A stretch of 64,000 bases of DNA from Candidatus Sericytochromatia bacterium. GTDB taxonomy: Bacteria; Cyanobacteriota; Sericytochromatia; S15B-MN24; VGJW01. Shown one piece after another: positions 19,801 through 31,800 of the stretch. The stretch covers positions 96,001-160,000 of the forward strand of contig JAYKHS010000003.1 of NCBI GenBank assembly GCA_035285865.1, given 5' to 3'. The position numbers were made by a program. How positions within the stretch are numbered: position 1 is the first letter of the stretch; every line of letters starts with the position of its first letter.

Positions 19801-22800
19801 ATGCCGATCCTGTCGGCGCCGGCAACGACCCGGCCGTTCGATCTGCTCGACCTCCTGCGTCGTTCGGATGACAACCTCGTGTTGCTGCTCGACGCGCAGG
19901 GACAGGTCGCGGGCCTCGTGACCCCGGTGGACATGCTGGCGGCCATCGCCGGCCAGCCGAACGAGGCCGCAGGCTTGCCGGGCACCGCCCTGCCTGCCTG
20001 ACCCCGCCGCCCGGGTATAGGCCAGACAGGCCACCATGTCCGAGTCCAACGCTCCGCCCCCCGGTGCGACAGCCCCGCTGCCGCCGTGGTTCCAGGCCCT
20101 GAGCGACCACTACAGGGCCAAGGCCGCCCACCAGTTCCTGCTGCACTTCAACATCCAGGACCACGTGTTGGTCGAGGGTCGCATCACGACTGTCCGGGAC
20201 CTGCTGGTGCAACGCCTTGCGGATCGCTTCCTGATCGTCACCTACAGCCTGTCCCGCGGCATCGGCTTTCCCGCGACGGGGCAGGCTCAGGCCGAGAGCC
20301 TCGGGCGTGAGCCCGGCCTTGGGCGTCTGCTGGGCTTTCGCGAGTCAGCCGAGGGCAACGTGCCGGTGGACCCCACGCGAGACGACCGGGACTTCCATCG
20401 GCTCCAGGGGCAAGGACGGATCAGCCCGTTGCAGCCTCCGGACGAGGCTCTGCCAGCCATCGAAAGGGCCTTGCGCCAAGGGGGCAGGCGTCTGTGCGTG
20501 CTGCTGGAGCACGTGGACAAACTGGCGCCTGCAGATGCCCGCGGTCGCGACCAGTGGATCGCCGTGGAAACACTGCAACGCTGGGCCCTCGACGGAGAGC
20601 TTGCCGAGCATGGCCATCTCGTCGTCATGCTGGCCGCGGAGCATGGCCAGGTGGCCGCTGCCGTGCAGGGGGCCAACAGCGGCACGGTGTCCCTGCAAAT
20701 CCCGCTGCCCGATGCGGCAGCACGCCGGATCTATCTCGACCATGTGCTCGCGGATTCCCATTTCGCCCGCCTGGCGTGGCAACCGGACTTCACGCCCGCG
20801 GACCTGGCCGGGCACACCGTGGGTTTCTCCCTGCGCGACATCCTGAACACCTTGAGGTTGGCGGCCGCGACGGGCAGGGCGATCGGCCAGGACCTGGTCG
20901 CCGAGCGCAAGCGGGACATCATCCGTCTGGAGAGCCACGGGCTGCTGCAGATCGTCGAAACACGTCATGGGCTCGACGCCATCGGCGGGCTGGAACACGT
21001 CAAGGCCTATCTGGGCGAAAAGATCGGCAACATCCGGAGCTACCTCGACCTGAACGCCCGGCACGAGCACACGGACGCCTCTCGCGACGCCCTCGCGCGA
21101 GCGCTGGCCTTGGTGCCCCGGGGCATCCTGCTCGCCGGTCCTCCCGGGACGGGCAAGACCATCCTCGCGGAAGCCTTGGCCCACGGCACCCAGCTGAACA
21201 TGGTCAAGCTGCAGGACATCCGCAGCATGTGGGTGGGCGAGAGCGAGCGGAATCTGACGAAGGTTCTGGATCTCCTCGTGGCCCTCGCCCCGGTGCTGGT
21301 GTTCGTCGACGAAATCGACCAGGCCCTTGGCAGCCGTGGAGGGCCTACGGCGGGCGCCGGGGGGGATACCGACAAACGGATCTTCGGCAAGCTGCTGGAG
21401 TTCATGGGAGACAACCGGCACCGCGGCCGTGTACTGTGGGTCGCGGCCACGAACCGGCCCGACTTTCTCGATGCCGCGATGCTCCGACGGTTCGATCGCG
21501 TCGTCCCGATCCTCGCCCCCGACCGGGAGGAACGGACGGCGGTGCTCGCCACCCTTGCCGGCCGTATCGGAACCCGGTACGGCACCGACGTGGACCTGGG
21601 CGCCATCGCGGAACGAACCGCAGGCCTGACGGGTGCCGGCCTAGAGGTCATCGTGCGGCGGGCCGCGGAGCTCGCTACCGACAACGTCATCACCCAGCAC
21701 GGGCTCATCACGGCATTGGCAGACCACAAACCCAACCACGACCCCGCTGTCTACGTGGAGCAGGCCATGCGCGCCCTCGTCGCGGCCAACTTCTTCTCGA
21801 TGCTACCCAGACATCTGCCGCCCGATCTCGCGGAGTTGGTCGAGGCCTGCCGGCAGGAGCGCAGCAACGCCCCGCTCGAACGGGCCTTGGCCCGCCTGAT
21901 GCCTTGAGGATCGTGCAGCTGGCCCTCTGGGTGGGGGCAATCTGCATCGTCGGGTGGTACGTCGCTGCCGAATGTGCCGAATGGCTGGCCCTCTCCTCGG
22001 AACGGGCACGGGCCGCGCTTCAGGGCAGCCTCCTGGGGGCTGCGCTTGGTGGAGGTCTCGTGGTGCTCGAGGTCTTGCTGCTGGACCCGAGCCTCTTCCG
22101 GACACCTGCACGCTGGGGTGGAGAGGCCCTGCGCGGGGCTGTCGTCGGACTGGTCTTCGGGACGGTCGGATTGCTGGCGGCGGCGGCCGCCTATGCGGGG
22201 CTGGGGCATGCCCCATGGGCCAGAGGCCTCTCGTGGGGGGTGCTGGGTCTCGCCACGGGCCTGACCGAAGGCTTCAAGGCGGCTTCGGCACGGCGGGCCA
22301 GGGCAGCCGGGGTCGGTGCCGGTGTCGGCGGCCTGCTGGGCGGTTGGGTGGTCGAACAGGGCCCCGAGTGGGCCGGGCCGTTGTCGGCCAGCCCGGAAGG
22401 CGCCGTCCTGGTGATGACGATGGGCCTTGCCGCATTGGGAGTCTGCCTAGGGGCCGGCATGGGCCTGGCGCAGGTTCTCACCCGCCGGGCCCGGCTGATC
22501 GTCCTGACCTCCCCGCTCGGAAAGCAGCTGGGCCTCGCCTTCGACATCGGCAGTGTCGCGGCCATCGAGACGATAGGCAGCCTGAAGGCCACGTGGACGC
22601 TCACGGGCGACCCCGGCGTGCTGTCCAGGCATCTGTCCCTGGAGCGCCGGGGGGGAAGCCTTCTGGTGCGTCCGCTTGGCCAAGCACAGGTCGACCGTTC
22701 GGATCGCCCCATGCGGCCGGATGAACTCGGTCAGCTGGCGGATGTGGCGTTCCATCGATTGTCCCCTGAAGCGGCCGTCCACCTGCGGGACGGCGAGATC

Positions 22801-28800: not shown

Positions 28801-31800
28801 ACCGGGTGCTGGCCGTGGTCCTGCTGGCCATCGTGGGTCTGTTTGTCCTGCTGGTGATATGGGGCATCCCCCAGGTCGGTCATCAGGTCACGAAGTGGGT
28901 GCCACCGGCGTGGGAACGAAAGCTGGGCGACTCGGCCCTGAAGTCCGTCGTGGTCGGCAAAGCCGAAACCGGTGGGGTCCGGGTCGGGATGGTGGAGGCG
29001 ATCGTCAAACGCCTCACACCCGATGAAGCGACCTGGTCATTCCGTGTCACGCTTGCCCCGGGTGACACCCGAGTCAATGCGATGGCCCTGCCAGGCGGAG
29101 CCATCGTCGTCACCCAGGGACTGCTCGAGCGATGCTCCACTCCGGAGGAATTGGCCGGAGTCCTCGCACACGAGATCGTCCACGTCCAGCGCCGTCACGG
29201 CCTGCAACGGATGGGGCAAGAACTGGGCATCCAGTTGCTGCTGCTCGTGCTGACCGGCGGCGATCCCTCGGACCTTTGGTCTGGTGCCGCAGGTCTCGCC
29301 GGCCTGCACCACAGCCGACAGGCCGAGGACGAGGCCGACAAGGAAGGGCTGGCTCTGATGCTTAAGGCCCGTATCGATCCACAAGGCATGGTGCGGTCGT
29401 TCCGGATGCTCCAGAAGCTTTCGGCGGAGTCTGAAGCCACCGCTTTGCCTGCATTCCTGAGCGATCATCCGGCCGTCGCCGACCGGCTCGCCCGCATCGA
29501 GGCCGAGGCCGCCCGGCATGCCGGTCCGTGGGAACCGATCACCCTGGATCGGCCTTGGCTCAACGTCAGGTTCCCGGCAAGCCGCCGCTGAGGACCTTCA
29601 GTGCAGGCGAGGACGCCCCCGGGGGGCTTCGCCGCGACTGCGGGACGCGAAGGCCAACTGGCTTTCCCCGAGCAGCACCGCTGCGTGCGCCCCGGTGATC
29701 CGCCCCTCGTTCAGAGCACGAAGGATGGCGCCCTCGAAGGCGCTTGGCGGCGGCCCCTCGCGCAGTGGTTCCCGCTCCATCCATCCGCGGGCATGCATGT
29801 CGGCCGCCAGTTCGGAGGCGTGCTGGGCCTCGAGCAGGCCCAGTTCGCGAAGACGGTCCAACCATCCGCCCATGGACAGACCGTGGGCCGCCTTGAGGAG
29901 CAGCAGCTCGCGGAGGTCCATGCGCGTCACACCGCGTCCGGGCTCGCGCTCGGCCACCAGGCGCGGCACCAGCAGGGCGCGGGCGAAACGGCGAATCCAG
30001 CGCGGCTCCTGGTCTGCCTGGCCGGCCAGATGCCAGCCGAGGACCTCGGCCGCCCCCTCCTGATCGAACGCCGGGTCCGACTCCGTGGGCAGGACGGCAA
30101 CGGGCCAGGCTCCGACGTGTACGGGGCGTCGCCCAAGCGGAGCGACCATCGCAACAGGAGCGTGCACGACGACCCACCCCCGGCGCTCCATCTCGGCACC
30201 CAGATGTCGCCAGGGCTGCAGGCCCTGCCCCCAAAGAACCCTGAGGCGATCGGCCCGCTGTTCGGCTTCCTCGGCTGAGCGAATCGGGCCGAGCAGGCCG
30301 GCATCGAGGTGCGCCGGCTCCTCATGCCATGTCCCGAGTGTCCGAACACCCTCCGCGCGGTCGACGCCATCGAGTATCCGGGTGGTCAACCGCGCCGCCG
30401 TCCGTCCTGCCAGCACCACCCCGACGGGCCAGACCGGAGCCCTCAGCGCTTCGTGCGTAGGGCGGCCCAGGTCTTCGGGTGTCACGCCCATCTCGCGCGC
30501 CAAGGCGAGAAGCGTGCGCCCCGAAGGCTGCGCACGGCCGTGCTCGTACTGCAGGAGCGACGTGTGGCTCAGACCGATGCGGCCAGCCAGCTCACGCAAG
30601 GTCAGCCCCGCCCTGACCCGTACCTTGCGGAGGTGTCGCCCCTGCCGCAGAAGTGTGTCCTCGCCCCAAGCCATGGCCATGCCCATCTCGCGAACCTCCC
30701 TGAGCGAATCGACCCGAACCCGATGCCATACCAGCATCAAGTTGGCAGCGATCCCAGCAGGACGATCCGTTGAAGGTGTCAGGAACGTGTCAGGCCGGCG
30801 TGACGGCCGACAGGATGCCCAACTCGCGGCCGACCCTGCCGAAGGCATCGAGGGCCCTGCCGAGGTCCTCGCGGGTATGTCCTGCCGTCACGATGGCGCG
30901 CACGCGCTCCGCACCGCGGGGCACGGTCGGGAAACCGATGCCGACGCAGAAGACACCTTCCTCGAAGAGCCGATCGGACAGGCGCATGGCCAAGCGCGTG
31001 TCGCCCGTGATGACGGGGGTGATGGGCGTGGTCGAGACACCGATGTCGAAGCCCATGCGCCCGAGGCCTTCCTTGAAGAAGCGCGTGTTGTCCCAGAGGC
31101 GAGCAAGAAGCGTCTCGTCCTCCTCGAGCATCCTGAAGGCCTCGCGCACGGCCGAAGTGACCGCCGGGGGATGGGAGGTACTGAACAGGAAGGGGCGCCC
31201 CCGCTGATGCAGCATCTCGATGAGAACTCGCGGGCCCGCAACGTAGCCGCCGAGCACGCCGATGGCCTTGGATAGGGTACCCACCTGAATGTGCACCCTG
31301 CCATGCAGGCCGAAATGGTCCACGGTACCGCGGCCCTGATGCCCGAGGACGCCGGAGGCGTGGGCATCGTCGACCATGATGATGGCCCCGTGCTCTTCGG
31401 CCGCATCGACGATATCGGGCAAGGGGGCGACGTCGCCGTCCATCGAGAATACACCGTCCGTCACGACGAGGGTGCGGCGATACTGGCCGCGAACCTCCTC
31501 GAGGACCCGACGCAGGTCCGCCACGTCGGCGTGCTTGTAGACCTTGATGGTGGCCCGGGACAGGCGACAGCCGTCGATGATGCTCGCGTGGTTGAGGGCG
31601 TCCGAGACGATCACGTCTTCCTTGCCGAGGACGGACCCGACCGTGCCGGCATTGGCCGTGAAACCGCTCTGGAAGACGACGGCCGCCTCGGTGTGCTTGA
31701 ACCGGGCCAGGTACTGCTCGAGCTCGACGTGCGCGGCCATCGTGCCGGCGATGGTCCGGACCGAAGCCGAACCCGCCCCGCAGGTCCGAACGGCCTCGAT

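Follow-up and report, generated by a model that had tools for sequence, protein, structure and literature searches.

Locus and genomic setting

What would a full-looking set of genes for ubiquitin-like (Ubl) tagging, placed among membrane proteins and next to an AAA+ ATPase, do in a Sericytochromatia bacterium (GCA_035285865.1)? The initial annotation read the locus as a bacterial analogue of ERAD, with membrane-triggered defence as an alternative. Our analysis points, with a probability of about 0.48, to a reversible switch for Ubl tagging, tethered to the membrane and of the conflict-system kind, apparently laid out like the FtsH ternary systems, and it is because of this likeness that the defence alternative fits better.

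Positions refer to the window, i.e. the whole 64,000-nt stretch analysed, in which position 1 is position 96,001 of contig JAYKHS010000003.1. The core cluster comprises nine abutting genes (20036-28654), coding for an AAA ATPase, a TM-FHA-like-TM-vWA-TM protein, E1, a TM zinc-finger protein, a YukD-like Ubl, E2, JAB and two coiled-coil proteins, with neighbours overlapping or at most 15 bp apart, and a 97-bp gap separates these from an M48 peptidase gene. The ten co-directional ORFs annotated earlier at 20036-29591 were borne out by this layout, and the Pfam matches reported for AAA, VWA_2, ThiF, Prok-JAB and M48 were reproduced with the E-values given below. The cluster has a GC content of 0.68-0.71, like the remainder of the window, it is surrounded by housekeeping genes, and its synteny is stable within the genus. 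All seven genes tested were under purifying selection (dN/dS 0.06-0.47). PADLOC returned generic matches only. The initial annotation did not include the radical SAM gene (12455-13507), the FHA-like domain of the vWA protein, the DUF2997-like end of the 307-aa protein or the second Ubl operon.

Membrane and coiled-coil proteins

All membrane topology in this analysis was derived from hydropathy alone. The 722-aa membrane protein (21904..24072, + strand; VWA_2 8.5e-15) consists of 4-6 TM segments, a degenerate FHA-like domain (residues ca. 208-315), a TM segment or internal signal (326-344), a vWA domain with MIDAS (423-603) and a further TM segment (668-686). The vWA domain follows the FHA-like domain, is flanked by a TM segment on either side and is probably extracytoplasmic. 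The FHA match was 0.011 here and 3.3e-4 in the G014 homologue, and the TM-FHA part aligned with a Bacteroidia TM-FHA protein adjoining an E1 (E 4e-5).

The next membrane protein (25223..25858, +) carries 3-4 TM segments, a zinc finger and a final TM segment, and is a candidate E3. The finger (C-x4-C-x6-C-x4-C-x4-C-x2-H-W-x6-C-x2-C, residues 132-168) has eight ligands and a Trp that are invariant in 6/6 sequences. A search with its predicted fold gave 39 matches with Z of at least 2, for the most part RING domains, the top six all being RING (best Z 3.4). No Foldseek match was obtained at E≤0.001, and neither Pfam nor profile comparison (4%, inside the shuffled range) linked the finger to Prok-RING_1; the modelled fold weakly suggests a RING-like E3. 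The JAB/MPN+ peptidase (26763..27413, +; Prok-JAB 9e-7) has a short Trp-rich hydrophobic tail in the focal genome; its G014 and G009 counterparts bear a clear TM segment and an additional domain.

The small coiled-coil protein (27429..27734, +) has weak relatives at the same position in G014 (two copies) and G009. It is followed by a 307-aa protein (27731..28654, +) with a hydrophobic N-terminus, a coiled coil and a C-terminal domain that aligned with DUF2997 (hhalign 83.6%, score 32, shuffled maximum 18). Just five homologues of this protein were returned, and it is a candidate substrate or effector. The M48 peptidase (28752..29591, +; M48 9e-25) was also present in G024 and G025, and gave no tblastn match in the two distant 20-kb loci (G014, G009); it is probably a genus-level neighbour and not the core gene it had been taken for.

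AAA ATPase

The 623-aa ATPase (20036..21907, +; Pfam AAA 4e-30) is composed of a degenerate N-half and one active AAA domain, with Walker A GPPGTGKT and Walker B VFVDE. Its description as Cdc48-like did not hold: the protein clustered with PspA-linked ATPases, has a single Pfam AAA domain and scored 133.5 bits against TIGR01243 (cut-off 802.65), and the last two results also exclude it from the Cdc48/p97 family as defined by two active AAA domains, an N-domain and the family score. It was sister to the PspA-linked clade (support 0.967), apart from Cdc48-like and FtsH domains, and is 33% identical, end to end, to the PspA-linked paralogue in this genome; its subfamily (>1080 bits) occurred in 7/301 genomes of the phylum. 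The focal AAA domain did not group with those of ternary systems, and the N-half profile gave no match to the ternary-system AAAs. IetAS systems have an S8 protease partner; membership was rejected at 82 versus 510 bits (NF042959), and the Pfam scan of the operon proteins turned up no S8 protease.

An inactive N-terminal AAA copy together with an active domain is shared with the PspA-linked ATPase treated in sections of Ravi et al. 2024 (PMC11237479), where membrane remodelling is suggested for it; the focal ATPase differs in being linked to a Ubl cascade. An unlikely, yet the best surviving, alternative to the tagging switch would be an envelope-stress or membrane-remodelling machine, in which a PspA-type ATPase dismantles coiled-coil membrane polymers and Ubl marks the cargo, in the manner of ubiquitin plus ESCRT. 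This is consistent with that suggestion, with PspA adjoining the related, sister ATPases in 5/8 related loci examined (L100, L101, L102, L105 and L107, not L103, L104 and L108), and with the two or three coiled-coil genes that end the operon. However, the focal locus has no PspA, its coiled-coil proteins have no significant likeness to PspA and no solved relative, and the radical SAM enzyme with its peptide would be left unaccounted for.

E1, Ubl and E2

The E1 (24069..25226, +; ThiF fold, ThiF 1.2e-34) has an invariant crossover-loop Cys186 and a C-terminal Zn ribbon, and its clade fell into one broad branch with ternary-system E1s at low support (0.54). The E2 (26134..26766, +), with HPN and Cys142, matched solved E2s (Pex4, 4e-8) and showed an invariant W-H-P-N...C142 in the alignment, while the 90-aa Ubl (25865..26137, +) had a profile match of 92% to YukD-like Ubls; both assignments of the initial annotation were thereby confirmed. 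At the level of sequence, catalytic motifs are intact in E1, E2, JAB, AAA and radical SAM.

The Ubl ends in T-V-A. In all four genomes of the genus the last residue is Ala, one residue short of a VAG motif, and a soluble JAB is missing alongside the Gly. The homologues of two other genera (G009, G014) end in VAG-RELL and VAAG-RSA, i.e. Gly plus propeptide, and Gly is kept in 53/56 other loci with a Ubl match. The focal Ubl is under strong purifying selection (dN/dS 0.06 versus G024), and of the 66 differences in four other runs, the 40 that were listed included no variant at its stop. These two natural states, Gly with propeptide and soluble JAB versus Ala without soluble JAB, amount to a natural experiment on whether Gly is required for conjugation.

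A second, ordinary E1-Ubl-E2-JAB-RING operon is located on another contig of the same genome, and its E2 was present in 4/4 genomes of the genus, together with a Ubl ending EAG-A or EAG-G. Less probable still than the remodelling machine is that, in this genus, the focal Ubl has ceased to be conjugated and acts non-covalently as an adaptor like YukD, which was shown not to be conjugated (portions of PMC1779556), while E1 and E2 use another tag or the second operon's Ubl, which ends in Gly. The Ala end, the lost soluble JAB and the second operon would all agree with such an adaptor. Against it, E1 Cys186 and E2 Cys142 are retained, bacterial Cap2 conjugates CD-NTases with Gly or Ala ends according to parts of PMC10449767, and G009 (94% complete) carries the focal operon with a Ubl that has the Gly, and a search of it with the second-operon E2 as query found no second E2.

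Radical SAM enzyme and its tail

The AmmeMemoRadiSam-like radical SAM enzyme (350 aa, 12455..13507, +; Pfam Radical_SAM 1e-10) has, in place of a C-terminal Zn ribbon, a tail of ca. 55 aa ending A-R-C-G. It scored 156.8 bits against TIGR04337, below the cut-off of 220, and with a tail unlike that of ordinary copies it was not assigned to the three-gene AmmeMemoRadiSam system; Memo and AMMECR1 neighbours, noticed by eye beside the G020 copy, were not seen beside the focal one. Full-length relatives were found only in the seven operon-bearing genomes of 47 searched (G016 has a fragment). The gene is immediately upstream of AAA in G014 and G015, immediately downstream of the 307-aa homologue in G009, and 6.5 kb upstream in the focal genus (g1).

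The tail region (13325..13507, +) matched fvmRadSAM-pep (PF20007), the peptide of ternary systems, in hhalign (78%, E 1.8e-5; score 28.8, shuffled maximum 19-21), also after the last four columns were dropped. Terminal Cys-Gly was present in 7/7 tails and 23/23 fvmRadSAM-pep peptides. As the Pfam PF20007 model gave no match to the tail, we grade this homology as of moderate strength; the radical SAM core does not group with that of ternary systems. The enzyme-peptide fusion joins both parts, shows that terminal Cys-Gly is retained, and offers a direct way into a family that has gone unstudied.

By analogy with Cap2 ligating cGAS, the Cys-Gly end could make this radical-generating enzyme a second E1/E2 substrate, ligated onto membrane or invader proteins, and the free peptide of ternary systems might be used likewise; we consider this joint proposal improbable. 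In this genus, where Ubl has neither Gly nor processing JAB, the tail is the one conserved candidate with a Gly end that is linked to the locus. If true, an enzyme of the glycyl-radical-activase branch, delivered at the membrane as a tag, would represent a novel type of protein modifier.

Distribution

The E2 was found, as annotated earlier, in 6/47 genomes of the class. The AAA and radical SAM subfamilies occurred in the same seven genomes, which include all six with the E2, and the carriers represent three independent genera with a patchy spread. As judged from sequence searches, the catalytic genes of the cluster and the radical SAM gene are co-inherited. The AAA subfamily, the zinc-finger protein and the 307-aa protein were seen only in Sericytochromatia-type loci (5-6/80 E1 loci). 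The E1 family itself is widespread, and JAB adjoins it in 63/80 E1 loci from many phyla; the claimed restriction to Sericytochromatia thus applies to this variant and not to the E1-JAB linkage. Related E1 genes in one Bacteroidia and one Deltaproteobacteria genome likewise have membrane-bound RING-like, JAB and TM-FHA neighbours, so tethering to the membrane is not in itself class-specific. The carriers are rare non-photosynthetic relatives of cyanobacteria, with a gene set resembling a predicted bacterial defence system and a radical enzyme tail that could be a tag.

Comparison with known systems

The closest known kind is the FtsH ternary conflict system, subsystem 3 of the vWA-MoxR systems in the pertinent parts of Kaur et al. 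2020 (PMC7159879). Those sections and the positive-control locus L087 have in common with the focal genes an inactive plus active AAA, a vWA protein, E1, E2, a YukD-like Ubl, a RING-type E3 (in the focal locus a candidate), JAB, a radical SAM enzyme with a Cys-Gly-ending peptide, and lineage-specific alpha-helical proteins. In the focal locus, by contrast, Ubl and E2 are encoded separately, the radical SAM enzyme carries the peptide as a fused tail, the vWA protein, the candidate E3 and JAB are membrane proteins, and the AAA, although of the inactive-N, active-C architecture, comes from the PspA-linked clade. The focal vWA has TM and FHA-like parts as fusion partners, not a beta-propeller or all-helical domain. 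There is no bpMoxR in the locus (generic MoxR elsewhere reached 55-61 bits versus 237 in the control locus), EAD1, expected on a Ubl-E2 fusion and on a caspase-like effector, was found in 0/5 operon-bearing genomes, and the operon proteins gave no Pfam match to caspase or CHAT. The locus is therefore a membrane-tethered variant of the FtsH ternary kind, not a member, and has no known effector.

With the E1-E2-RING-JAB "tri-ligase" operons (Burroughs 2011, as cited in passages of PMC7159879, PMC3417536 and 10.1101/2023.09.26.559546) the locus shares the E1 family with its Cys, a YukD-like Ubl with an xAG end, whether or not a propeptide follows, an HPN E2 with Cys, and JAB, all in one operon. 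The second operon of the focal genome is an ordinary example of this type. It differs by a long insert in the E2 and by the loss of the mature C-terminal Gly in one genus (4/4), which G009 and G014 retain. E1, E2, Ubl and JAB are also common to Bil, Bub and CBASS Cap2 (parts of PMC11601596 and PMC10449767). In the account of PMC11601596, as far as its relevant sections go, the Bil E1 has two domains and Bil operons contain no E3, and Bub lacks the catalytic Cys residues that the focal E1 and E2 keep; Bub membership was rejected on this retention, with no DUF6527 match among the operon proteins. Cap2 is a precedent for conjugation of an enzyme through a terminal Gly or Ala (same portions of PMC10449767), and no CD-NTase was found in the focal locus.

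Proposed function

In the tagging switch, the outward-facing vWA domain would sense an invader or envelope damage, and the TM-FHA-like part would collect the cascade at the inner membrane. Ubl, charged by E1, may be attached by E2 and the RING-like membrane zinc finger to membrane-proximal targets, of which the 307-aa hydrophobic coiled-coil protein is the likeliest, and would be taken off by the tethered JAB, which could set the threshold. The inactive plus active AAA might remodel or release the tagged complex without feeding a protease, and the radical SAM enzyme would modify its own Cys-Gly tail, a fused form of the ternary-system peptide. Against a conflict system, the housekeeping surroundings, host-like GC and stable genus synteny are unlike a typical defence island.

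In ERAD, the AAA ATPase Cdc48/p97 works with membrane E3-like and DUB partners, as are found in the focal operon. Extraction of tagged membrane proteins by such an unfoldase for degradation, with M48 as the membrane protease, is the weakest alternative: the TM-anchored candidate E3 and DUB adjoining the ATPase, the host-like GC and the stable synteny agree with it, but the ATPase is not Cdc48, having one active domain of the PspA clade and a score far below the family cut-off, proteasome or HslV subunits were found in 0/5 operon-bearing genomes (83-99% complete), M48 is missing at both distant loci, only 7/47 genomes carry the operon, and the radical SAM enzyme is unaccounted for. What stands of the earlier proposal is the complete-looking tethered cascade and its link to an AAA ATPase, not the ERAD/Cdc48 analogy.

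Bacterial Ubl operons with an E3 are described as predicted and untested in the relevant parts of 10.1101/2023.09.26.559546. The focal genes combine a tri-ligase cascade relocated to the membrane, an ATPase of the PspA clade and a ternary-system radical SAM enzyme with fused peptide, modules not found together elsewhere in our searches. If bacterial Ubl tagging is indeed coupled to an ATPase of the PspA/ESCRT-III clade, this bears on the origin of the link between ubiquitin and membrane sorting.

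Organisation of the operon

Nine overlapping or abutting ORFs on the plus strand (20036–28654) encode an AAA ATPase, a vWA protein, an E1, a transmembrane (TM) protein with a zinc finger (candidate E3), a ubiquitin-like protein (Ubl), an E2, a JAB protein, a coiled-coil protein and a 307-aa protein. The operon is a new variant of a kind so far only predicted, and our preferred reading, at a probability just short of one half (ca. 0.48), is a membrane-tethered conflict switch built on the plan of the FtsH ternary systems. The initial annotation had described a co-directional cluster of ten genes ending in an M48 protease. 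All ten ORFs are in place, but only nine overlap or abut; the M48 gene starts 97 bp after the run and had no match in the two 20-kb loci of G014 and G009, operon-bearing genomes of two distant genera, and is probably not a core member. From the vWA gene to the 307-aa gene, the order is the same in both of these genomes. The domain assignments of that annotation agree with our own matches, and its count of the E2 in 6 of 47 class genomes was reproduced. No promoter or terminator signals above chance were found. At 33197–36812 lie genes which, by eye, we take to resemble those of cyanophycin synthetase and cyanophycinase.

Relation to FtsH ternary systems

The E1 search returned three actinobacterial loci with E1, JAB and AAA genes. 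By Pfam, locus L087 is a full FtsH ternary system, with genes for CHAT-EAD1, radical SAM, a beta-propeller protein, the fvmRadSAM-pep peptide, Prok-RING_1, E1, EAD1-YukD-E2, JAB, AAA, bpMoxR, fvmX2 and fvmX7, a set in accordance with PMC7159879, section 21. The focal operon shares this plan. However, MoxR is absent from the focal locus, EAD1 from all five operon genomes searched, and neither caspase nor CHAT was found with the operon, which is therefore not itself an FtsH ternary system. A further ternary type with a Ubl system is described in PMC8195603. The literature searched, which did not extend to Burroughs 2011 and 2012, where membrane RING operons may be described, nor, probably, to the source tables of PMC7159879, which may bear on novelty, gave no account of the focal operon. 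Leads from atlas searches stayed below threshold.

ATPase

Over its full length, the focal ATPase shares 33% identity with a paralogue in this genome, whose gene follows those of PspA and a TM coiled-coil protein. In a FastTree phylogeny of the AAA domain (191 columns) the focal clade was sister to the PspA-linked clade (support 0.967), and the FtsH, Cdc48-like, proteasomal, Ycf46-like and ternary-system domains fell outside this pair. The profile of the N-terminal half matched the PspA-linked family only, for which an inactive N-terminal copy is described in PMC11237479. Membrane remodelling as the function of the operon is a rival reading that we consider doubtful. The focal subfamily (>1080 bits) was present in 7 of 301 phylum genomes. 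The PspA, TM coiled-coil and two-domain ATPase genes at the paralogue's locus (G000:C28, L100:8483–11836, minus strand) are conserved in several class genomes.

Conjugation enzymes and Ubl

The E2 and Ubl, which had been weak calls, were both confirmed: the E2 profile matched solved E2s (best 4e-8), and the Ubl profile matched YukD-like Ubls of related operons (92%), the focal Ubl having no solved relative by sequence. W-H-P-N and Cys142 of the E2 are kept in six of six sequences. The E1 retains Cys186, and the JAB its Glu and HxH...S...D residues. By hydropathy, the JAB tail in the window stays below a TM-level score, and the JABs of G014 and G009 have clear TM segments (2.64 and 1.66, respectively).

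In G009 and G014 the Ubl ends in TVAG-RELL and SVAAG-RSA, respectively, and an additional soluble JAB is encoded immediately before it; in all four genomes of the focal genus the Ubl ends in TVA and the soluble JAB is lacking. Gly is retained in 53 of the 56 other loci that gave a Ubl match; two of the rest are ternary-system fusions reading TAA, and one is broken at a contig end. That the Ubl of the focal genus is not conjugated is unlikely. The Ala form had the lowest dN/dS among seven genes (0.06, one pairwise comparison) and is thus not decaying, and since Cap2 conjugates proteins with a terminal Gly or Ala (PMC10449767), the Ala-ending Ubl may still be conjugated. Read-through of the Ubl stop was discarded: tRNA-Sec is present, yet the downstream frame is not conserved.

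Candidate E3 finger

All eight ligands of the finger are invariant, and so is the Trp that follows the sixth. Modelled alone (pLDDT 73.7) and searched against 48,161 chains, the finger gave 39 fold matches at Z ≥ 2 (best Z 3.4), of which the top six were all RING; by title we take about 24 of the 39 to be RING and six PHD-type, several of these title-to-fold assignments being presumed. The model suggests that the finger is likely RING-like. Foldseek returned nothing at E 0.001, hhalign against a Prok-RING_1-like alignment (18 rows) stayed at chance level, and neither Pfam Prok-RING_1 nor zf-AN1 matched the finger in five genomes. Against 1.84 billion proteins, the finger profile found five true relatives and one unrelated protein, and no bridge to RING. 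The whole membrane protein, when folded, matched helical bundles only, and a RING motif scan near other E1 genes gave only two credible cases. The predicted complex of E2 and finger (score 0.01) was counted neither for nor against.

Topology and turnover

In the vWA protein, an FHA-like domain precedes, and the vWA domain lies between, two TM segments. From this hydropathy the vWA domain probably faces outward, which would exclude it as a cytoplasmic co-chaperone. ERAD-like turnover, which would accord with the earlier label "Cdc48-like", is distinctly unlikely: judged by sequence, the ATPase is not Cdc48, having a single Pfam AAA domain and reaching 133.5 bits on the Cdc48 model, whose cut-off is 802.65, and searches of five genomes turned up neither a proteasome nor an HslV subunit.

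Radical SAM gene and 307-aa protein

A radical SAM gene at 12455–13507 had been overlooked; it lies 6.5 kb upstream of the ATPase gene with four unrelated genes between, a spacing also found in the congeneric G024, G025 and G026. The gene is immediately upstream of the ATPase gene in G014 and G015, and immediately downstream of the 307-aa homologue in G009. Full-length relatives occur in exactly the seven genomes with the ATPase subfamily, which belong to three genera and hence count as three independent cases; G016 has a fragment broken off at a contig end, and 21 other genomes have ordinary copies without the C-terminal tail.

All seven tails end in A-[R/P]-C-G, and all 23 aligned fvmRadSAM-pep peptides (of 28 returned) in Cys-Gly. 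The tail and peptide profiles, both shallow, matched at 78% with a score of 28.8 (maximum over 100 column shuffles, 19–21), a match that held with the last four columns removed. The Pfam fvmRadSAM-pep model did not match the tail, and in the radical SAM tree, where long branches meet, the focal enzymes did not join those of ternary systems. From the profile comparison we take the tail, with moderate confidence, to be fvmRadSAM-pep fused to the enzyme. That the enzyme itself would be conjugated via its Cys-Gly end is quite improbable. A TM and weak beta-propeller protein is encoded head-to-head with the radical SAM gene (10670–12409, minus strand); it is kept in the genus, and no counterpart was noticed at the loci of G014 and G009. 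FtsH ternary systems have a beta-propeller protein, to which it may or may not be linked.

In all three cases checked, the N-terminus of the 307-aa protein is hydrophobic; the protein also has a DUF2997-like end (83.6%), to which Pfam DUF2997 gave no direct match. Likeness of the tail to this end was weak (23%, score 23.5 vs 18.9). DUF2997 itself showed no likeness to the tail, and resemblance of the 307-aa protein to DUF1257-like proteins (1%) was dismissed. The grouping of AAA, DUF2997 and radical SAM genes recurs in G027, where the DUF2997 gene is flanked by an AAA gene on one side and a small radical SAM gene on the other. The G027 locus (L148:3294–7728) is a single run of Hsp70-like, AAA, DUF2997, small radical SAM and DUF1257-like genes.

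Related Ubl operons

The 80 E1 loci compared came from Cyanobacteria, Chloroflexi, Armatimonadetes, Proteobacteria, Acidobacteria, Actinobacteria, Bacteroidia and archaea. A JAB was nearby in 63 and an E2 match in 30, and the full ATPase (five loci), finger protein (six) and 307-aa protein (five) were confined to the Sericytochromatia type. Membrane versions of Ubl operons do exist outside Sericytochromatia. A Bacteroidia locus (L028:2927–10662) has E1, a Ubl ending in DPG, E2 and large TM proteins, one of which carries JAB; its TM-FHA protein, with a RING-like stretch seen by eye, can be aligned with its focal TM-FHA counterpart (E 4e-5). One Deltaproteobacteria locus provides the nearest outside relative of the focal E1 (0.88); there, the gene of a TM protein bearing a Cys-Trp motif precedes a Ubl-E2 fusion.

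The genome under study has a second, ordinary Ubl operon (G000:C14:71.8–75.1 kb, L099:7816–11069, minus strand) with a Prok-RING_1-like protein, E1, a YukD-like Ubl ending in EAG-A, E2 and JAB; its E2 occurs in 10 of 47 class genomes. A short [IL]-E-W-R motif, seen also in related operons, stands at the start or the end of several proteins of this second operon. In G014, a RING-like/HIRAN fusion follows the JAB of an ordinary operon (L020:12423–13052). A lone DnaJ-domain gene, often preceded by a TM zinc-ribbon protein, lies upstream of the widespread E1-Ubl-E2-JAB type (L031, L044, L046, L051, L029, L042). Two loci labelled as Halobacteria MAGs (L037, L041) place a bacterial-type E1 and a Ubl-E2 fusion in archaeal-labelled genomes. 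In a metagenome locus (L095:8013–15659), genes for E1, E2, a Ubl ending in NAG and JAB are directly followed by a proteasomal ATPase and a Pup ligase, an adjacency noted in PMC7159879.
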